From positions 8,850 through 72,849 of IMG/VR virus record IMGVR_UViG_3300019487_000023: a stretch of DNA of 64,000 bases; one strand, written 5' to 3'. The notes beneath the pieces were generated by a model, which saw only the letters and a program-made list of their open reading frames with translations, had not been told where the DNA came from and did no database searches. Positions 2,917-52,098 of the stretch are shown in pieces. This DNA comes from a virus. A program made the translations under genes and the position numbers. Numbering within the stretch: position 1 is the first letter of the stretch; the number at the start of each line of letters is the position of its first letter.

Positions 2917-3408
2917 TCAGCTGATACCGAACTTGGCCTTCAGGCTGTCGGGCAATACCGAGGTATTGACCTCGACCGACTTGGCCTTCTCAGCAGCGAG
3001 CTCGGCAACCCGAGCATCGATGTACTGCTGCACTTCGGCCTTCTCAGCAGCGGTCGTCCTCGTGTTGAGGAACAACCGGAGGTTCTTGAGCTGCTCGTCA
3101 CCTTGTCCCGCTCTCGAACCGGGGTTCTTCGGAGTGTACTTCGTGTTCCCGTTGAAGCGAGGGTCCTTGCGAACCCAGTTGCTCACGAGACCGGAGACGT
3201 ATTCCTTGAGACCGCTCTCGTCAGGAAGGTCGCCGCTGTAGTCGATCGTTCCCTTCTGGAATCCCGCGATGAGGATGGCAGAGACCTGAGCGCGAGTCTC
3301 GCGGGTCATCAGGGACTTGATGTCCATCCCGTCTTCGAAGGCATGACCTTGCTCGTTGAGGACGGAGGTAACCGCTTGATACACAGCATCTTTCTGTTTC
3401 ATTCGCAT
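2917..3408 (-). CDS. Hypothetical protein (about 161-163 aa), paralog of 1167-1652
   Basis: Clear end-to-end similarity to 1167-1652; AAGGAG SD; same codon bias. Confidence 0.9.
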   Translation of the reverse strand: MRMKQKDAVYQAVTSVLNEQGHAFEDGMDIKSLMTRETRAQVSAILIAGFQKGTIDYSGDLPDESGLKEYVSGLVSNWVRKDPRFNGNTKYTPKNPGSRAGQGDEQLKNLRLFLNTRTTAAEKAEVQQYIDARVAELAAEKAKSVEVNTSVLPDSLKAKFGIS

Positions 3409-3577: not shown

Positions 3578-3988
3578 TTAACTGGTACTTGGAATTAAAT
3601 TTAAAAATATAAGTTTTTCTGGCTCTACAACCTCATACCAACTTTTTAAATTATGGCAATTATGACATAACGTTTGCAAATTCTCTTTAGAGTTATTGTT
3701 TCTGTTCTTATCAATATGAGCTACTGTTAACTGACAATCTTTCTCTGGCATAAATCCACAGCGCCTGCACTTATCTTCTCTAAACTTTAAATAGGGTCTC
3801 TTCTTTAACTGTGACTTTGTTCTAACATAGTTCTTATTCTTAGCGTCTTGAATCCATTTCTTTTGATATTCACTGGCCTTTACTCGCACACATACCTTAC
3901 AACGATGCGCCAATCCATCTTTCGTTGTTGGATGCTTATAAAATTCACTAACGTCTTTATTTTCTTTACACAAAGTACAACATTTCAT
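3578..3988 (-). CDS. HNH homing endonuclease
   Basis: N-terminal CxxC...CxxC; C-terminal CRRC...AHIDKNRNNNSKENLQTLCHNCH; AT-rich. Confidence 0.85.
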   Translation of the reverse strand: MKCCTLCKENKDVSEFYKHPTTKDGLAHRCKVCVRVKASEYQKKWIQDAKNKNYVRTKSQLKKRPYLKFREDKCRRCGFMPEKDCQLTVAHIDKNRNNNSKENLQTLCHNCHNLKSWYEVVEPEKLIFLNLIPSTS

Positions 3989-4074
3989 CTTACATTTGTA
4001 CCCTGGCCCGCTATCAACCTATTAGGCTACATCAGGCACCAGTACTCATTTTCCTATTAGGGTATAAATTTTCC

Positions 4075-4242
4075 ATGGCCATTAAAGTGAATTTCGCCAA
4101 CGCAACAATCCACCTTCCTGGGCGCTACGGTCCTCACCAAGACTTATTTCCTACTCTGCGTTTCTTCACCGTACTGAAACTTCTTAACATTTGCAAGGCC
4201 TCCACATTGCGAGCCTATATCCGTAACAAGAGGCTCACCTAA
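4075..4242 (+). CDS. 55-aa protein whose N-terminus resembles the tail-sheath N-terminus
   Basis: Below the track cutoff. MAIKVNFANATIHLPGRY versus sheath MAINVSFNGATIYKPGAY; TATAAA 6 nt upstream; stop coupled (TAATG) to the next ORF. Confidence 0.6.
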   Translation: MAIKVNFANATIHLPGRYGPHQDLFPTLRFFTVLKLLNICKASTLRAYIRNKRLT

Positions 4243-4460
4243 TGTGCATCGGCTGCTCCCCATCAAACAAACTCAAGAACCATTTCCTTTATATCTTGGT
4301 GGATTTAGGCCTCACCAAGGCTGAAGAGCTAGGTGCCATCACCAGCTACCACACTCCCGCAACGAAACCCGCACTTGCCCACTCCTTTTGGTCCATCTGG
4401 TACCAGCACCCGCAGGACGACGCGTGGAAGGCCTCGCTACTTGACAAGGAGGAGTCGTGA
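4242..4460 (+). CDS. Hypothetical protein (72 aa), LxxLGLxK/T family
   Basis: ORF track; coupled on both sides. Confidence 0.6.
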   Translation: MCIGCSPSNKLKNHFLYILVDLGLTKAEELGAITSYHTPATKPALAHSFWSIWYQHPQDDAWKASLLDKEES

Positions 4461-4663
4461 TCGATAGACGATTGTCGTACCCTCACCTCGGCCGCGATGA
4501 TGTAGCCTACCAGCTCAACCTCATGAAGTATCGCGGAGCCCACTACCAGCGTCTCTTCGTATTCTTAGCTCGCTTAGGTTTGAAGACTCCGCGCGAGTAT
4601 TTGCCTGTCGGCTGGCAGTATCGTCCCATCAACCCTTTGAAGGGCTGGAAGTACGGGTTATAA
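4457..4663 (+). CDS. Hypothetical protein (68 aa), LxxLGLKTP family
   Basis: ORF track; GGAGGAG SD and GTG start. Confidence 0.7.
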   Translation: MIDRRLSYPHLGRDDVAYQLNLMKYRGAHYQRLFVFLARLGLKTPREYLPVGWQYRPINPLKGWKYGL

Positions 4664-4670
4664 TAGGGAT

Positions 4671-4964
4671 ATGCGCGAGTGGTTAACCTTTAGTAAATCT
4701 GGGCAGTGGGTGTTGCATAAGGCAACCGCACCCAACTCACCTGACGAGCATCCGCCTGCGGATGACTACACCAGTCACAATAAGCCCTACAAATCTTTTC
4801 GAACAAATCAGGGCGAGCTTCACGAGGACCACGGACAGAGGGGTACCCTTCATGACTTTGGCGGCGGCAAGCAACCCAAGCACCCAAACCAGCGCAAGGC
4901 TACAACGCCATCTCAAAAAGTTCAAAGCTTCTACAACGAGCGCAACCCGGGCGTTGGCGACTGA
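4671..4964 (+). CDS. Hypothetical protein (97 aa) with N-terminal KSGQW motif
   Basis: ORF track; TATAAT 6 nt upstream of the ATG. Confidence 0.7.
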   Translation: MREWLTFSKSGQWVLHKATAPNSPDEHPPADDYTSHNKPYKSFRTNQGELHEDHGQRGTLHDFGGGKQPKHPNQRKATTPSQKVQSFYNERNPGVGD

Positions 4965-4981: not shown

Positions 4982-5164
4982 ATATACAACATCTCTGATC
5001 GGATTCGCGTGATATTTGCGCTTATGGATTGTTTAGACCGTTTAGGTTTGAAGTCCCCGAAGAAGTTTTTAGGTACTGAGATACGGTATGTGTGCGGCAC
5101 AGACGACGTGCAGGTGCGCATCTTCCAGAAGGAAGACGGTTCTTGGTGGGAGACGATGTACTAA
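4982..5164 (+). CDS. Hypothetical protein (about 60 aa), LDRLGLKSP family, start uncertain (ATA 4982 or later GTG/ATG)
   Basis: Not in the track. Open frame ...LMDCLDRLGLKSPKKFLG...WWETMY; TATAAT 8 nt before the in-frame ATA; stop coupled to the ATG at 5164. Confidence 0.5.
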   Translation: MYNISDRIRVIFALMDCLDRLGLKSPKKFLGTEIRYVCGTDDVQVRIFQKEDGSWWETMY

Positions 5165-5420: not shown

Positions 5421-5705
5421 CTAGCTTGAAGCTTGAGGATATCTGACTCGAAAGACTTGGTCAAGGCGGTCCTCCAAGGACAGTCGTCCTTTCCACGAGG
5501 GATCATATCCATAATACACTAGTCGATAGTTGCGACTGAGTTCATCGCCATGATCTAAGTCATAGAAGTCTATGTAGCTTGACATGGATTCGGTCTGCAC
5601 GTGAAGTAGGCCAATTACCCTAAGACGTCTAAGAACCTTCAGTAGCCTGAAGAAGGACGTCACTTGCTGCATGTTGAGATTGTCGAACGGTTTACCAGGC
5701 TCCAC
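5421..5705 (-). CDS. Hypothetical protein (up to 94 aa), TAG stop
   Basis: ORF track. Confidence 0.6.
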   Translation of the reverse strand: MEPGKPFDNLNMQQVTSFFRLLKVLRRLRVIGLLHVQTESMSSYIDFYDLDHGDELSRNYRLVYYGYDPSWKGRLSLEDRLDQVFRVRYPQASS

Positions 5706-5856
5706 TTTTAGTCCCTGCCAGTGTTAGAAGTTGCATATACTCTTCCCATACTTTAACAGAGGGCGTAGCTGCGCTCTTGATCCCAAGATCCCTTAGGACA
5801 AACAGTAGTCGCATTGTGCGCTCAGTAGAGATGATCTTATAAGTCAGCGGGTCCAC
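5692..5856 (-). CDS. Hypothetical protein (54 aa), LRDLGIKS family
   Basis: Below the track cutoff. GTG start 8 nt after TATAAC; MDPLTYKIISTERTMRLLFVLRDLGIKSAATP. Confidence 0.5.
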   Translation of the reverse strand: MDPLTYKIISTERTMRLLFVLRDLGIKSAATPSVKVWEEYMQLLTLAGTKSGAW

Positions 5857-6946: not shown

Positions 6947-6983
6947 ATTATACGACGGGCCACACGGGGTAGCAAGGTATAAT
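6947..6983. promoter_or_regulatory. Back-to-back divergent -10 elements (TATAAT on - at 6947-6952, TATAAT on + at 6978-6983)
   Basis: Both lie 5-8 nt from start codons at the strand switch that opens the virion module. Confidence 0.65.
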
Positions 6984-6991
6984 GAGTTAAT

Positions 6992-7807
6992 ATGGCAATG
7001 GACCCACCAAATCAGATATATCCACCTCCAGCACAGTCGATTACGTCAACGCCGTCGCCTATGCCGCTGTACCTTCCTGATCCTTCGATCAAGGGTATTA
7101 GCTTTGATCAACTTTTGAATCAACGTGGAATTCGCTTCTTTCACCAGAAAGCTTTGCCATGCCCAAACATCCTTACAGTGGATACTAACGCTCATCAGCC
7201 AGATTGCAAATTCTGCGACGATAGCGGCATCATCTACTACGATAACAAGGAGTGCTGGGGAATTTTCCAAGGCAACAGCATTGAGAAAACTTTTGAAGCT
7301 CACGGTATCTGGGAAATCGGCACTGCAGTAGTGACGTTCCCCACTGAGTACCCTGATGGTAGCGGTCAGGCAGACTTTAATACCTATGATAGGTTAACAA
7401 TGCCTGATTTTGAAGTTCGCCTGTGGGAACTTAAGGAATACGAGCCTCGTCCCGACGGCCAAGAACTCAGGTATCCAATCCGCAAGGTCGAGTACGCTTC
7501 TTCAATTATCAACAATGTTCAGAAGTTCTATTACCCTGGGGTTGATTTTAACGTAACGCCCGACGGGAAGATCCAATGGATTTACGGAAAAGAACCTTCT
7601 TACGACGCAGATGAGGAAAAGGGCGAGGTCATCGCCTGGTCATATTTTGCCAACCCTGTTTATGTCGTAGTACAGTCTCTAAGAGAACTCAGAATCACGC
7701 AGGAGCTAGTTAACGGCCAAAAAGTCTCTAAGCGTCTGCCACAACAGATCCTAGTGAAGCGTGACTTCATGTTCGGAGCTGGGGAGAAATTGTTACAGAG
7801 TCCGTAA
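6992..7807 (+). CDS. Probable neck/head-closure protein
   Basis: CPN...H.PDCKFC motif; first gene of the structural block, upstream of the sheath. Function inferred from position. Confidence 0.6.
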   Translation: MAMDPPNQIYPPPAQSITSTPSPMPLYLPDPSIKGISFDQLLNQRGIRFFHQKALPCPNILTVDTNAHQPDCKFCDDSGIIYYDNKECWGIFQGNSIEKTFEAHGIWEIGTAVVTFPTEYPDGSGQADFNTYDRLTMPDFEVRLWELKEYEPRPDGQELRYPIRKVEYASSIINNVQKFYYPGVDFNVTPDGKIQWIYGKEPSYDADEEKGEVIAWSYFANPVYVVVQSLRELRITQELVNGQKVSKRLPQQILVKRDFMFGAGEKLLQSP

Positions 7808-7871: not shown

Positions 7872-9401
7872 ATGCCTCAAGCAGTAAGTCGTAGACAATA
7901 CAGAATGATGATGGCTATTCTTCACGGAAAGGCGAAGGATGGTCCGCGCGGTCGTCCTCCAAAGTCCGTCGCCGCGAAGTATACAGATCCAGGTAAAGAT
8001 GCCCCAGAGCAGTCCGGTGAAGATCGTGGCGGTAGCTGGAATGAAGAGCATCATGCAAAGGCCAAGGAACGTACCAAGGCAGCTCGCAAGGATCGCAAGA
8101 AGACAAAGAAAGAACTCCGTAAAGCACTAGAAGATTTTTATAAGGCCACCAAGAGCGGCGCAGCCGCGACCCTTGTGATGGATAACAATAACCGCATCCT
8201 ACTTGGACAACATTGGGGTGACAAGAATTCTCTTGCTTTCCCTGGCGGACACCTAGAACCAAATGAAGACTCTGCACTAGGCGCACTGCGCGAGCTGCAA
8301 GAAGAGACTGGTCTCATTGGACACAACCCACAAAAGATTATGGAACATAAGGACAGCGGCAGAGACGTCACTGTATACCTTATTGAGTCCTTCCGTGGAA
8401 AACCAGCATCTTCGAAAGAGCTCACCAACTTGAAGTGGTATGAGCCTCAGGATATCGAGTGGAATAAAGTTCGTAACTGCTGCATCGCTCCTTTGAAATA
8501 TGTAGTTGAGCAAAAGCTTGGTAAGAGTATCAAGGGAATGCTCGCGATTGAGAAGCTAGAGAAGAATATCATCCGTCAAAGAGGGGACGCAGTTTTCGAA
8601 GTCACTCACGGCGACGCGCTAAAGCTTGTTGGCAATGGCGTCTTTAGAATGTTGCGCGAAGCTGTGCGTGATATGAAGGATGAAGATTTTAAAGATGTTC
8701 ACATCGACACGTACACGGTTTCAATCCGTCGTCATATGTCTGATGTCTATTCTGGTCGCGTAAGCGACGGACACAAGGTCGTATACCAGTTCACTAACAA
8801 GTCGCTCCCTGAACTCACCGCTGGCTTGATGTCTGTGTTCGAGTGGTATCTTCCTGAAGACCAAAAGGACCTAGAACTCCTTGACGAAGGTCTTCTACAA
8901 GACGACGCCATCCACGGCGGCATCAATGAGCTTGTAGACAATTATCGTCGCCACAATATCGGCAACATCTATGAAGAGATGGAAACTATCCGCTCGCACA
9001 TGCGCAACGGTATGGCTATCGACCTTCAGCAAACAGAAGCAAAGATTATGACTCTGTTTGATAAGCTTGAAGACGTTGTTCATGATGTTGTTGGAAAGCA
9101 TAACATGCTTGCTCAAGAAGCAGGCAAAGAGATCGAAGAGCTTGAAAGAAAGCTTCGCGAGCTACAGAGCAAGATTGAAGAAATGGACAAGAAGCCAGAA
9201 GTAGTAGAAGCCTACTCTTCCAATCCTGCTAACAAAGATAAAGTCATCGATGAGTACTACTCATATCTACCTAAGCCATCTATCGAAATTTCCCCTAACG
9301 GAAAGATTCGCATCTCTTTTGGCTCCGACTGGAATACGCTTGAAAAAGAAAACTTCTTGAAGGATATGAGAGCTCGTGTCATCAAGAAGGCGAGCAAGTA
9401 A
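7872..9401 (+). CDS. Nudix-hydrolase-domain protein (509 aa) with basic N-terminus and C-terminal coiled coil
   Basis: Nudix box PGGHLEPNEDSALGALRELQEETGL; RGRP AT-hook-like motif near the N-terminus. Confidence 0.85.
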   Translation: MPQAVSRRQYRMMMAILHGKAKDGPRGRPPKSVAAKYTDPGKDAPEQSGEDRGGSWNEEHHAKAKERTKAARKDRKKTKKELRKALEDFYKATKSGAAATLVMDNNNRILLGQHWGDKNSLAFPGGHLEPNEDSALGALRELQEETGLIGHNPQKIMEHKDSGRDVTVYLIESFRGKPASSKELTNLKWYEPQDIEWNKVRNCCIAPLKYVVEQKLGKSIKGMLAIEKLEKNIIRQRGDAVFEVTHGDALKLVGNGVFRMLREAVRDMKDEDFKDVHIDTYTVSIRRHMSDVYSGRVSDGHKVVYQFTNKSLPELTAGLMSVFEWYLPEDQKDLELLDEGLLQDDAIHGGINELVDNYRRHNIGNIYEEMETIRSHMRNGMAIDLQQTEAKIMTLFDKLEDVVHDVVGKHNMLAQEAGKEIEELERKLRELQSKIEEMDKKPEVVEAYSSNPANKDKVIDEYYSYLPKPSIEISPNGKIRISFGSDWNTLEKENFLKDMRARVIKKASK

Positions 9402-11122: not shown

Positions 11123-13321
11123 ATGGCAATTAATGTAAGTTTTAACGGGGCAACAATTTATAAGCCTGGCGCTTACTCCAAGACTTCGATTGATCTTGGT
11201 GGTGGTTTTCCACTATCACCAACTGGTCTAGTCGCTATTTTTGGTGAAGCGGACGCAGGTGCTCCAGGCGCAAACGAAGTAAATATCGCTGACAACGTGT
11301 TCAGCCCAGAACAACTTCCTGCTATCAAGCAGAAGTATCGCAGCGGTCCACTTGTTGATGCATGCGCGTTCTTGTTCGCACCAGGTGCCGATGGCGCAAT
11401 TCCTGGCGGAGCAAGCGCTGTCTATATCTACAAGACAAACGCTTCTGTTCGCGCAACGCTCGCACTTGACAATACTTGGGGAACTCTACGTTCTCTTGAG
11501 TGGGGTGCAGGCGGCAACAAGCTCACCTACAAAAACGTTCTCACTCCAGCTGTAAGCGCTACTCGCGCTTCGTCTGCTCCATTCGACGTCACTGGTGACG
11601 TTGCAACGGAAACCCTTGTGCTTCGCGTACAAGGCGGCGCAGACAATACGTTCACTGCTCCTGCAAGCACCACGACTCGTGCATTGCTTCAGACTGCGTT
11701 GAACACTGCTGGTAACTGGTCTGGCGGTCTTCCTTCAGGCGTCACTCTCACTGTTGGCGGTGCATCTGATGCAGCTGCTACTTTGACGATTGCTCGCTCT
11801 GCAGCTGGTACTCCAAACCGTGAAGGATACGGTCGCAACTTCCAGATTGTTAGCGGTACGCTAGCAGCTTCTGCAAATCTTGCAACTGGTCTCGTAACCT
11901 CTTCTTCTGAAGATATGGCTACGATCACTATCTCTAACAAGCGTGACCTCATCGACGAAAGTGAAACTATCGGCGGAGATCTAGTTTTGAAGCTTGGTCG
12001 CAGCGGCGGCGTGACTCCACAAGTCACCGTCAACGCTACTCAAGTTCTCTTGATTAACAACTCTGTCACTGAGTATGCTATCACTAAGTCTGATTTCGGT
12101 ACTCTTGCAGAAATGTTGGCATGGATCAACAGCACCGCAACCAACTGGTCCGGTGAACTTGGTTCAACCTTGTTCGGTCAACTAAGCCCAAGCATCCTTG
12201 ATCGCGTAACCGGTCTTGGCGCTCTTGGTTCTGCTTCGATTCGTCCAGCTCAGATCAAGCGCGATGCACAACTTGCTCGTGACATGTTTGCTCAAAGCTC
12301 TATGATCAGCCAGAGCATCGTAGGCGCAAACGCTTACGCTGGTCTTCCTGATGCAGCTGCTGAGATCTTCCTAACTGGTGGATCTAAGGGCGGCACTCAG
12401 ACTGCTGAGATCGCTTCTGCTCTAAGCAAGTTCGAAAAGTTCCGCGTGAATAGCGTTGTTCCTTTGATGTCTCGCGACGCAACGGACGATGCTGCTGACG
12501 GTCTTACTGACCCAAGCTCTAACTACACCATCGATGGTATTCATCAGGCTGTGAAGACTCACTTGAGCTTGATGGCAACCACCAAGAAGAAGTCTGAGCG
12601 TCAAGGATACTTGTCTTACAAGGCAAGCTACTCTGATTGCAAACAGAAGTCTCAAGACTTGGCATTCCAACGCATTCAACTTGCGATCCAAGACGTTCGT
12701 CAAGCTGACAGCGATGGCAACATCAAGTGGTTCCAGCCATGGGCTGGTTCTGCTCTCCTAGCCGGAGCTCGTGGTGGTAGCCCAGTCGGTCTTCCAATGA
12801 CCTTTAAGTATTTCAACATGTCTGGTATTCGTCAGACTGCTCAGCCAATGAGCACTGCCGAAGCTGATATCGTGGTGGATTTCGATCCTGATACTCAGTA
12901 TGATGATGCAATTCAAAACGGCATCACCTTCTGGGAAGCTCCACAAACTGGCGGATTCCGCCTTGTTGTGGATAACACCACCTATGGTAAGGATGGAAAC
13001 TGGGTGTTCAACCGCGGCAACGTTCAGTACGCTGCTGACGTTCTAGCCTACGACTTCCGTAACCAACTTGAGAATATCTATGTTGGCGTGAAGAACACTA
13101 TCACTGCAGCCGAAGTTAAGTCAACATGCGAAGCTATCCTAGGTACCTACCTAGCTCAAGGTATTACGGTTTCGACCTCTGATGCCAAGAACGGCTTCAA
13201 GCAGCTTGTAGTACAGATCAACGGCAACACTATCAACATCTCAGTTGTAGTTAAGCTTGTTGAGGGTATCGACTTCATCTTGGCCGACATCACTCTTCAA
13301 AGAGCTCAGCAAACAGCTTAA
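11123..13321 (+). CDS. Contractile tail sheath protein (732 aa)
   Basis: N-terminal IYKPGAYS...GLVAIFGEADAG motif and a C-terminal sheath domain (LVVDNTTY...VKLVEGIDFIL); followed by tube genes. Confidence 0.92.
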   Translation: MAINVSFNGATIYKPGAYSKTSIDLGGGFPLSPTGLVAIFGEADAGAPGANEVNIADNVFSPEQLPAIKQKYRSGPLVDACAFLFAPGADGAIPGGASAVYIYKTNASVRATLALDNTWGTLRSLEWGAGGNKLTYKNVLTPAVSATRASSAPFDVTGDVATETLVLRVQGGADNTFTAPASTTTRALLQTALNTAGNWSGGLPSGVTLTVGGASDAAATLTIARSAAGTPNREGYGRNFQIVSGTLAASANLATGLVTSSSEDMATITISNKRDLIDESETIGGDLVLKLGRSGGVTPQVTVNATQVLLINNSVTEYAITKSDFGTLAEMLAWINSTATNWSGELGSTLFGQLSPSILDRVTGLGALGSASIRPAQIKRDAQLARDMFAQSSMISQSIVGANAYAGLPDAAAEIFLTGGSKGGTQTAEIASALSKFEKFRVNSVVPLMSRDATDDAADGLTDPSSNYTIDGIHQAVKTHLSLMATTKKKSERQGYLSYKASYSDCKQKSQDLAFQRIQLAIQDVRQADSDGNIKWFQPWAGSALLAGARGGSPVGLPMTFKYFNMSGIRQTAQPMSTAEADIVVDFDPDTQYDDAIQNGITFWEAPQTGGFRLVVDNTTYGKDGNWVFNRGNVQYAADVLAYDFRNQLENIYVGVKNTITAAEVKSTCEAILGTYLAQGITVSTSDAKNGFKQLVVQINGNTINISVVVKLVEGIDFILADITLQRAQQTA

Positions 13322-24287: not shown

Positions 24288-24311
24288 TTTAAGTTAAGAT
24301 ATAATGAACTT

Positions 24312-25277
24312 ATGAGTTTTACGTCACTTTTAGACAGATTTAGCAAGCCAGCGCAAGCGGCTACACAACCTGGTCCGGTGTTGAGCGAAGATATCGACAA
24401 CCTTACGGAGCAGAACTCTAACTTTTTCTATAAGACCGACCCAAAGAATTGGTACTCTGCAAGGCCATATGGCTTCAAGATGAACATGAGGGATGGCAAA
24501 CGTACCTTCATCTTCTTCTTGCCTATCAACCCAAGCAATATTGTAACGACCACGCATTTTGCGACAAATATGGTCTCTACACTGTATGGTACTGTTGAAG
24601 AACACTCTGACATCAGGTACTTTGATATCGAAATCAGAGGAAGCACAGGCTTCGTGCCAATGTACACGCGTCATGCTTCTGGCACTACTCCTGCTGTTGC
24701 CGCAGAGCTCATTAAGAAAGATTTTGGAACTCCAGGAAGAGCTTCGTATTCCGCTCTTACTAAGGTTCCACTCGGTGGATTCTTCGCTAAGACAGTTGGT
24801 GCGATTAACCAGATCAAGAATAAAGCCGCTGACTTGTTAGATGGTGGTCCAAAACCAGAAACAGGCGTCTACACAGAGCAAACTGGTTACTTTGCCTTCC
24901 ATAACCTATATAAGTTCCTCATGCGTCACAAGAAAGATGCCTCTGGTGCTGACGGTGGCGTTGGCGAGCGCTCTAAGCATCCGTTGACATTCTTTAACTA
25001 CAAAGACAATCAACAATATGACGTAGTTGTCCGAAACTTTACGCTGACTCGTAGTGCCGAAAATCCGATGATCTATAACTACGCTATCAGCTTGCGTGGA
25101 TATAACCTAAGAGGCCTAGATGACAAGATAAGCGATGATTTAACACAGCGTCTTAAGGATCTAGGGCTTAATGGGGTTGATACTTCATCTCTATTGGGCG
25201 ACATTAAAGATATTTCTAGTTCAGCAAAGGCTATCATTGGATCGGCAGTAGCTGGCATTAACGTATTGGGTAGATAA
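24312..25277 (+). CDS. Probable baseplate/tube-initiator protein (321 aa)
   Basis: FFLPINPSNI and NFTLTRSAENPMIYNYAISL motifs; position. Confidence 0.6.
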   Translation: MSFTSLLDRFSKPAQAATQPGPVLSEDIDNLTEQNSNFFYKTDPKNWYSARPYGFKMNMRDGKRTFIFFLPINPSNIVTTTHFATNMVSTLYGTVEEHSDIRYFDIEIRGSTGFVPMYTRHASGTTPAVAAELIKKDFGTPGRASYSALTKVPLGGFFAKTVGAINQIKNKAADLLDGGPKPETGVYTEQTGYFAFHNLYKFLMRHKKDASGADGGVGERSKHPLTFFNYKDNQQYDVVVRNFTLTRSAENPMIYNYAISLRGYNLRGLDDKISDDLTQRLKDLGLNGVDTSSLLGDIKDISSSAKAIIGSAVAGINVLGR

Positions 25278-50604: not shown

Positions 50605-50706
50605 ACGATCCTCCTATAAATGGATCACAGTAATTATACGATCAGAAAAACGACCGTATTATGGTATGCATACCGAAGTAGTATTGTACCTTCGTATAAT
50701 TGCACC

Positions 50707-52098
50707 ATGAACACAACAGTCAACAATGACCGCACGATAATTCAAGACCCAACTCAAGATGTGGCAGACTTTATCGAGTCAACTCTAGTTTATCTTGACA
50801 AGAGCAAGCAATACCAACTCAAGAGAATGGCCAGAAATATTTGGCAACGTTCTACCCCTCTATATACGAAGTTGCAGAAAGAAGTGAATGGTCAACTGTT
50901 TGAAAAGCTAGCAGATGGCTCGTACTCTATTTCCTCTTGCTTCATCAATGCAATTGAAACAGAGTTTCCTGGCTTCGCCTATACAGATAAGCGTAAAGAT
51001 ACTGGTAAAACAGTCGCACTACCATGGGTTACTAAACCTCATAACATGAGGGATTATCAACAAGAGGCTTGCGACATTATGCTTAAGTCTCATCGTGGCG
51101 TTATCAATTTTGCAACAGGATTGGGAAAGACCCTTGTAGCTACTCACCTAGCGAAGCAGTGTCGGAAGAGAGCCCTTATCGTTTGTCCTTCAGAATCTGT
51201 AGCATCCCAATTCTATGAGATCTTCGTCAGTGCCTTTGGAAAACAGAAGGTCGGGTTTTATGGGGACGGCAAGAAGAAGCTGGGCGAATTAACGATCGGT
51301 ATTGCTGCCTCTGTATCTAAACATATCGCAGATTTCCAGAACCATGAACTTGGACTTGTCATTATCGATGAGACACACCATACTCCTGCTACCACGTTCT
51401 TCACAATTGCTGAAGGGTTGGCAGGCGTAGGTAAAGTGTTTGGTCTTACTGCAACCGATTACAGATCCGACGGCAAAGATATTATGATCACTGGTGGATG
51501 TGGCCATGTGTTGATGCGCCGTGACATTAAGTGGGGCGTCGATAATCAGTGGTTGGCTGAACTATACTTTATCGTTCGTGAAGTTCAAACTGGTGGACGT
51601 GATTATAAAGATGACAAGTTGAAGTCCTATAAAGAGCATGTGCTCAATAACCAGATTATGAAGGATCAGATTCTTGCTGACTGTCAGAAGATGATGGCCT
51701 CTGGCAAAACGATCCTATGTCTCGTAGATGAAGTAGCTCACGGTAAAGAGTTGAGCGCAGCTCTCGGTATCCCATTCGCCACAGGTCAAGATTCTAAATC
51801 GCAAGAATACGTAGACCAGCTAAATGCTGGGAAGATCAAGGGATTGATTGGTACAGATTCTAAGGTAGGCGAAGGAACAGATACAAGAAATGTGGATGTA
51901 TTGATTATGGCCAACTTCGTAGCTTCAAAGGGTCCTGTTATCCAAGCAATTGGACGAGGACTCCGTAAACAGGGCACTAAAACGAAATGCATCATTCTCG
52001 ACTATATTCCTATGGGTTCAACGATGCTCACTCGCCATGCCCATAATCGTATTGTCTTCTATAGAGAGATCACTGATAAGGTAAAGGTTGTAAAATGA
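50707..52098 (+). CDS. Superfamily 2 DNA helicase (UvsW/XPB-like)
   Basis: MRDYQ; ATGLGKT; IIDETHH; TAT; GEGTD; QAIGRGLR. Start moved to ATG 50707, 6 nt after TATAAT. Confidence 0.9.
   Translation: MNTTVNNDRTIIQDPTQDVADFIESTLVYLDKSKQYQLKRMARNIWQRSTPLYTKLQKEVNGQLFEKLADGSYSISSCFINAIETEFPGFAYTDKRKDTGKTVALPWVTKPHNMRDYQQEACDIMLKSHRGVINFATGLGKTLVATHLAKQCRKRALIVCPSESVASQFYEIFVSAFGKQKVGFYGDGKKKLGELTIGIAASVSKHIADFQNHELGLVIIDETHHTPATTFFTIAEGLAGVGKVFGLTATDYRSDGKDIMITGGCGHVLMRRDIKWGVDNQWLAELYFIVREVQTGGRDYKDDKLKSYKEHVLNNQIMKDQILADCQKMMASGKTILCLVDEVAHGKELSAALGIPFATGQDSKSQEYVDQLNAGKIKGLIGTDSKVGEGTDTRNVDVLIMANFVASKGPVIQAIGRGLRKQGTKTKCIILDYIPMGSTMLTRHAHNRIVFYREITDKVKVVK

Follow-up and report, generated by a model that had tools for sequence, protein, structure and literature searches.

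The 55-aa product of ORF55 (positions 4075–4242, + strand, stop included) has only the N-terminal arm in common with the tail sheath of its own phage, and belongs to an undescribed family of sheath-arm mini-proteins in related phages. Members combine a copy of the arm, predicted to form a beta-hairpin, with a short amphipathic helix that bears a motif. We propose, with a probability of roughly 40%, that such a protein acts as a stand-alone donor strand on the sheath. ORF55 lies in a window of 64,000 nucleotides (positions 8,850 to 72,849 of IMG/VR record IMGVR_UViG_3300019487_000023), to which coordinates without a prefix refer. The source is an uncultured phage, represented by a 108.6-kb IMG/VR contig (G000, 64% complete) from a cave metagenome, with Myxococcus phage Mx1 as its nearest named relative. 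A full-text literature search returned no report of a protein made of a sheath arm only, and no family of this kind is listed in Pfam or PHROGs.

The source of the copied arm is the tail sheath gene at 11123–13321 (+), which encodes 732 aa with a sheath core and a C-terminal domain. Its product is 32% identical to the annotated sheath of Mx1 over 94% of the length, also matches Bacillus phage sheaths, and gives a profile match to the solved sheath of phage 812 (5li2, E 1.6e-6). The N-terminal arm (codons 1–18, 11123–11176, +) is invariant or nearly so in 30 of the 30 relatives listed, and the first ~40 and last ~25 residues are almost invariant in 22 relatives that are otherwise 55–70% identical. 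Across L002–L030 (alignment A2), sheath length ranges from 599 to 947 aa, varying via insertion domains in the middle.

ORF55 and the sheath N-terminus are identical at 11 of 18 residues, in register from Met1. As an earlier note made from the DNA alone had described, the similarity ends at residue 18, beyond which nothing aligns in any frame. The arm-coding part (codons 1–19, 4075–4131, +) comprises the sheath-arm copy and a family-specific Gly19; the sheath core and the conserved C-terminal domain are absent from ORF55, which aligns to the sheath by residues 1–18 only. The same note had read the use of different synonymous codons as a sign of selection on the peptide, and this reading holds. 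Five of the 11 shared residues (A2, V5, F7, I12, G16) differ in codon, and the arm codons agree at 13/18, 13/18 and 8/18 of their first, second and third positions, respectively. Nucleotide identity over the arm is 34/54, with the 30 nt upstream and the 36 nt downstream at random level. The third-position mismatches and the random flanks argue that the conserved object is the peptide, and neither a DNA element nor a recent duplication. The same codon-position pattern is also seen in the related locus L019 and is less clear in L007. A frameshifted continuation of the sheath past residue 18 was dismissed as a 9-nt coincidence (CCAAGACTT), the other frames hitting stops without any sheath-like sequence. 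Another candidate sheath fragment in the window, an 11-residue match at 1091–1123 (−; E 0.084) with an in-frame stop 19 codons upstream, was judged to be due to chance.

The sheath arm was scanned ungapped against all six frames of G000 and of 31 related loci (1.06 million positions); background matches did not exceed 7 of 17 identities save for one 9, and ORF55 and an ORF of a relative (L019:1292–1429) both reached 10/17. When the 17 residues after Met were compared start to start between small and large ORFs of nine genomes or loci (~3.0 million pairs), at least nine identities were obtained only for the sheath pairs of ORF55 and L019 and for one trivial internal repeat. When ORF55 was left out, a profile of 36 relatives recovered it with 38.4 bits (E 6e-10) over residues 1–49. 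This leave-one-out profile scores every sheath N-terminus at 22–30 bits, at profile positions 1–18 only, which places ORF55 ~9 bits above the arm-only matches. On these counts, we regard a chance match of the arm as excluded, and in profile terms the homology is reciprocal. Apart from one shared C-terminal tag, no small ORFs were found that copy N-termini or segments of the other large proteins of G000, and the equally conserved C-terminal arm of the sheath has no mimic above background in any locus.

A degenerate DNA pattern of the arm, run over IMG/VR, retrieved small ORFs of 44–89 aa on eight further contigs and one true sheath from another clade. Two protein searches, one seeded with an alignment (5.8 billion proteins) and one an exhaustive profile search (1.84 billion representatives), gave only small proteins; the exhaustive search yielded 29 clusters (50% identity, E up to 0.001) of 42–105 aa, none with a name or a Pfam domain. 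At 42 aa, the shortest members are apparently too small to fold autonomously and may do so only upon binding a partner. A word-indexed search with ORF55 as single sequence returned no candidates; the alignment-based search succeeded. Neither ORF55, nor eight family members, nor the neighbouring tiny genes have a Pfam or PHROG match.

Every member opens with the arm pattern M-A-I-x-V-x-F-N-G-x-x-I-x-K-P-G-x-Y-G, followed by a short helix motif. In an alignment of 37 members including ORF55 (A3), columns M1, A2, I3, F7, G9, I12, P15, G16 and Y18 are kept, as is G19, with positions 4, 5, 6, 8, 10, 11, 13, 14 and 17 free. After the invariant Gly19 there is usually Pro, Asp or Gly and then Trp, followed by h-h-x-x-L-x-K-L-[GND]-[ILV]. 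The commonest family residue is the sheath residue at 15 of the 18 arm positions. Seven to eight arm residues that are invariant in the sheath (including N4, S6, N8, T11, K14, A17 and S19) are variable among the mini-proteins, whose position 19 is an invariant Gly versus Ser in the sheath. Past the helix motif the sub-families are wholly different, the arm being their one common element. ORF55 has all arm features of the family (start at Met1, M1 A2 I3, F7, I12, P15 G16, Y/W18 and G19) except G9, where Asn occurs in 4/37 aligned sequences, its own included. Its helix motif (residues 30–43, 4162–4203, +) is a degenerate h-h-x-x-L-x-K-L-G-[ILV] with Leu for Lys and, as in several other members, Asn at the Gly position, and its leave-one-out score is 38 bits versus 68 for two relatives. 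Judged from its sequence, ORF55 is a genuine but rather degenerate member of the family.

The arm gene is present in G000, G010, the contig of L019 and G001–G005, and in a divergent form in G008. All five further carrier contigs that were tested encode the cognate sheath type, at 53–78% identity. The arm gene is invariably found 5–9 kb from the sheath gene, within a variable array whose tiny genes often overlap and which is placed between copies of a conserved gene family of 161–163 aa and orf97 with the virion module. This synteny of ORF55 is common to L033, L034, L038, L041, L042, L043 and L063. The arm gene is absent from G007 (100% complete) and G006 (91%), both of which have the same sheath arm; because it is missing from these two complete or near-complete relatives, it is accessory. 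Mx1, the only cultured relative, has a different sheath arm and no mimic. Absence from G007, G006 and Mx1 argues against an essential part in assembly.

Many of the tiny array genes (~35–100 aa) share the helix motif h-h-x-x-L-x-(K/R/D)-L-G-[ILV]-(K)-(S/T)-(A/P), often without an arm, and a profile of the C-terminal part of the family alone also matches such non-arm ORFs. In the window, the motif is found at 4242–4460, 4457–4663 and 5009–5164 (+) and at 5692–5856 (−). Corresponding arrays of relatives lie at L019:447–2934, L007:1342–4100 and L014:286–2540; at least 12 tiny genes of the L019 array bear the motif, and array content differs strongly among relatives. A 17-residue tail, N-T-[SA]-x-L-P-x-x-L-[KR]-x-K-[FY]-G-I, ends four otherwise different proteins: the 161/163-aa paralogues at 1167–1652 (−) and 2917–3408 (−), a 70-aa protein (G000:15–227, −) and a 363-aa protein (G000:99101–100192, +). 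The tail resembles the helix motif of the arrays and may be a shared docking tag.

Upstream of ORF55, at a distance of 86 nt, there is an HNH homing-endonuclease gene (3578–3988, −; PHROG 2255, E 1e-12) in an island of 33% GC, and weak HNH-like matches occur at other places near the sheath gene of relatives. Carriage of the arm by co-conversion with this endonuclease was considered and rejected, the arm genes of relatives having no adjoining HNH match in the loci whose flanks the analysis covered. In an 80-aa sub-family, the arm gene lies ~1 kb from a phage gene of the sigma-70 family with r1_2, r2 and r3 domains (L063:398–1096, −, and the P0015 contig); the incomplete G000 yielded no sigma gene.

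The earlier note had assigned ORF55 its own -10 element. As a conventional promoter this does not stand, since the hexamer TATAAA at 4063–4068 (+) lacks a -35 element and failed a sigma-70 scan; the hexamer, the 6-nt spacer and the ATG do fit exactly a leaderless class in G000, and this geometry predicts a leaderless transcript. Over the whole 108.6 kb, a -10-like hexamer followed by 6–7 nt and an ATG is found at 21 ORFs of at least 45 aa, with ORF55 among them and further examples at 4659–4673, 6978–6994, 24300–24314 and 50695–50709. Each of the other spacers between 0 and 30 nt occurs at 0–4 ORFs, mostly 1–2. There is no Shine-Dalgarno sequence upstream of ORF55, and the hexamer is kept in a second strain (run X2). 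For the arm genes of relatives, ordinary Shine-Dalgarno sites were seen in most of the upstream sequences that were read. The sequencing runs listed as containing the DNA of G000 comprise two DNA runs from cave metagenomes and no RNA run. The coupling to the next ORF, likewise claimed before, is real, with a TAATG overlap at 4240–4244. This next gene, ORF72 (4242–4460, +), is preceded by AAGAGG and has an L-x-x-L-G-[IL] motif and no arm; no homologue was found in the loci of relatives. It overlaps in GTGA with ORF68 (4457–4663, +), which has a strong AAGGAGGAG upstream and the motif form L-G-L-K-T-P-R-E, also present in L007:1858–2076. ORF55 therefore heads a coupled unit of three genes, after which comes the leaderless promoter of orf97. 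ORF55 is a real gene and, from these signals, is probably translated from a leaderless mRNA.

Selection was assessed on three close pairs by the Nei-Gojobori method, giving dN/dS values that are rough as the arm has only 18 codons. Pair 1 (L041:7069–7335 versus L061:283–552, 89 aa) has a dN/dS of 0.085 in the arm and 0.46 in the rest, pair 2 of 0.14 and 0.17, and pair 3 of 0.72 and 0.42. In pair 3 the arm is thus almost neutral, while the remainder of the protein is constrained. By these values, purifying selection is the rule, though the arm can evolve fast, and the family as a whole is old and under selection. The dS of pair 1 is 0.87 in the arm codons versus 0.07 in the rest, which indicates that its arm segment was swapped by recombination. 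The divergent arm ORF of the complete relative G008 (L057, G008:176173–176346) keeps the arm up to residue 15 and then has G16S, Y18N and G19S. Its arm DNA matches the phage's own sheath gene in a 24-nt run with 2 mismatches, which hints at occasional gene conversion with the sheath gene. In X2, the second cave-metagenome strain, ORF55 is uninterrupted and differs by one synonymous change and by V33I. X2 and G000 differ at 4 positions in ~680 nt over the HNH gene and ORF55; over ORF72 and ORF68 (4283–4670), X2 is heavily diverged with many indels, and two blocks past 4973 are replaced. A mosaic boundary between the two strains thus lies right after ORF55.

AlphaFold2 with alignment A3 models ORF55 with a mean pLDDT of 79 and a pTM of 0.39, as a hairpin (strands 3–7 and 10–14) and two helices (24–36 and 42–54). 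In this model, the conserved I3, F7, G9, I12, P15, G16 and Y18 would provide the hydrophobic and turn pattern of the hairpin. Fold searches with the model gave a best E of 0.19 in Foldseek against the PDB and a best Z of 3.7 in a wide VIA search, and an ESM Atlas search returned no usable match. A complex prediction of the arm-deleted sheath (residues 21–732, A2) with ORF55 (A3) scored 0.00, which counts neither way. The AlphaFold2 model of the sheath monomer leaves residues 1–34 disordered (pLDDT < 50) and is uninformative on arm docking; as expected, these low values would fit an arm that is ordered only in the polymer.

An alternative is that ORF55 forms an autonomous mini-domain, a self-contained hairpin with helix that serves, for instance, as a nucleic-acid- or protein-binding early or accessory regulator and in which the captured arm is only structural. 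That AlphaFold2 folds ORF55 alone agrees with this, as do the conserved arm positions, which are exactly those that any hairpin needs, and the loss of the sheath-invariant polar residues. The gene is, moreover, accessory and lies among tiny arm-less genes with the helix motif, outside the conserved virion module. An unconstrained hairpin should drift, however, and the remainder of the protein is unalignable between sub-families; yet the arm consensus has stayed that of the sheath at nearly all positions. Among the carriers examined, the family occurs only in phages with the cognate sheath, and the model combines a low pTM with the lack of a fold match. Weighing these points, we find the mini-domain somewhat doubtful, although it is the alternative that survives best. 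Small DNA-binding folds (ribbon-helix-helix, HeH/SAP/Rho_N-like) gave no Pfam match up to E 10 for ten array or family proteins; the motif L-x-K-L-G-I-K resembles, we presume, the first half of HeH motifs.

The arm-less neighbours share the helix motif, so the core activity of the family may lie in the helix. A combination of tag and mimic can be envisaged, in which the shared helix L-x-x-L-x-(A)K-[LF]-G-I-K would anchor the proteins that bear it to one common partner and the arm-bearing member would recruit or block the handshake site of the sheath. Carriers of such a helix are a dozen tiny array proteins and the C-terminal tails of the 161-aa paralogues and of the 363-aa protein. We consider this arrangement unlikely; if it were true, the arm-bearing protein would be a natural regulator of contractile-sheath polymerisation that is encoded genetically and works through a donor strand.

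Phage decoys of sensors that recognise structural proteins are known in principle, and the mini-protein might likewise mimic the sheath N-terminus towards a third party, such as an immune sensor, protease or chaperone of the host or a factor of a competing phage, which it would titrate or block. The sheath arm is invariant in the clade and hence a good recognition target. Accessory status, a fast-changing array, copy content that varies among relatives and the one fast-evolving arm pair are all traits of conflict genes. Against this, the arm gene has no linked gene for defence or sensing, and we know of no sensor for sheath arms. Such a decoy seems to us decidedly improbable. Interference with host contractile systems, which the earlier note had also suggested, finds no support here.

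That ORF55 is a non-functional remnant, whether as a piece of a duplicated sheath 5′ end in decay or as an ORF that arose by chance, is hardly credible: it departs from the consensus at well-kept positions (N8A, G9N and K14L, absence of the Trp that follows the arm elsewhere, and Asn in place of Gly in the helix), the word-indexed search found no homologue and the G008 member looks degenerate, but the leave-one-out profile match extends beyond the arm, the family is under purifying selection, the start lies exactly at the leaderless promoter position at the head of a coupled unit, the ORF is intact in X2 with one synonymous and one conservative change, and intact homologues with the same arm exist in many related phages.

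The reading that we prefer is thus that of a stand-alone donor strand. In solved sheaths, the N-terminal arm pairs with the C-terminal strand of the neighbour in the ring, and this strand pair adds to the C-terminal-domain sheet of a subunit in the adjoining ring; the handshake site left free on the last ring is filled by the C-terminus of the terminator (PMC10457771). The sheath proteins of T4 and phiKZ self-assemble into polysheaths without tube or baseplate (PMC6088184). The arm of the mini-protein would occupy the handshake site on free or terminal sheath subunits. Subunits occupied in this way would be capped, and polymerisation delayed or limited, or a partner bound by the helix would be tethered to them; the helix would either stabilise the hairpin or bind this second partner. 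An essential structural cap is unlikely, because the gene is accessory, belongs to a hypervariable array of motif-sharing genes and has lost sheath-invariant residues. It might instead be a modulator, a decoy or an adaptor.

Residues 1–18 of ORF55 are homologous to the arm of its own sheath and predicted to be beta; handshake arms of this kind are known from R-type pyocin, from T6SS VipA/B and from phage sheaths such as Vibrio phage XM1 gp6 (PMC10457771). Unlike the arm of a sheath subunit, that of ORF55 comes without sheath domains, leaves the 7–8 sheath-invariant positions free and is followed by Gly19 in place of Ser. The tail terminator (XM1 gp5, T4 gp15 class) and the sheath initiator (gp25/TssE class) are comparable by analogy, in the proposed supply or acceptance of a strand in the sheath sheet (PMC10457771, PMC6088184). 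They are, however, essential conserved virion parts of the tail module, whereas ORF55 is accessory and encoded in a variable array, and no relation in sequence or fold to either was found with Pfam, PHROG, Foldseek or VIA. For mimicry of a terminal peptide in phage assembly, the precedent with the best documentation is CpmB of SaPI1, which serves here as an analogy. This protein of ~70 aa has only its C-terminal 16 residues in common with the 80alpha scaffolding protein, binds the same site on the capsid protein and redirects assembly (PMC5644958). ORF55 similarly has only a terminal peptide in common with a structural protein; CpmB is a helix-and-hook mimic encoded by a parasite, whereas ORF55 would be a beta-arm mimic encoded by the phage itself, with putative binding. 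In chaperone-usher pili, a foreign strand fills the site for the N-terminal extension of the next subunit and prevents premature polymerisation (PMC4654587). The concept of donor-strand complementation and exchange is alike, but the proteins and the compartment are unrelated, and the comparison is an analogy only.

To our knowledge, it is not understood how phage sheath subunits avoid dead-end polysheaths before baseplate and tube are ready, and for the handshake site we know of no soluble partner in nature. The family described here offers a ready-made probe of this site, namely a protein of 42–105 aa that bears just the donor arm and is under selection across many phages of this kinship. Binding of the arm would make it a natural and minimal means to inhibit or cap sheath assembly, which might be transferred to the engineering of tailocins or T6SS. 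Failing such binding, the family would be a case of a structural-gene fragment put to another use.
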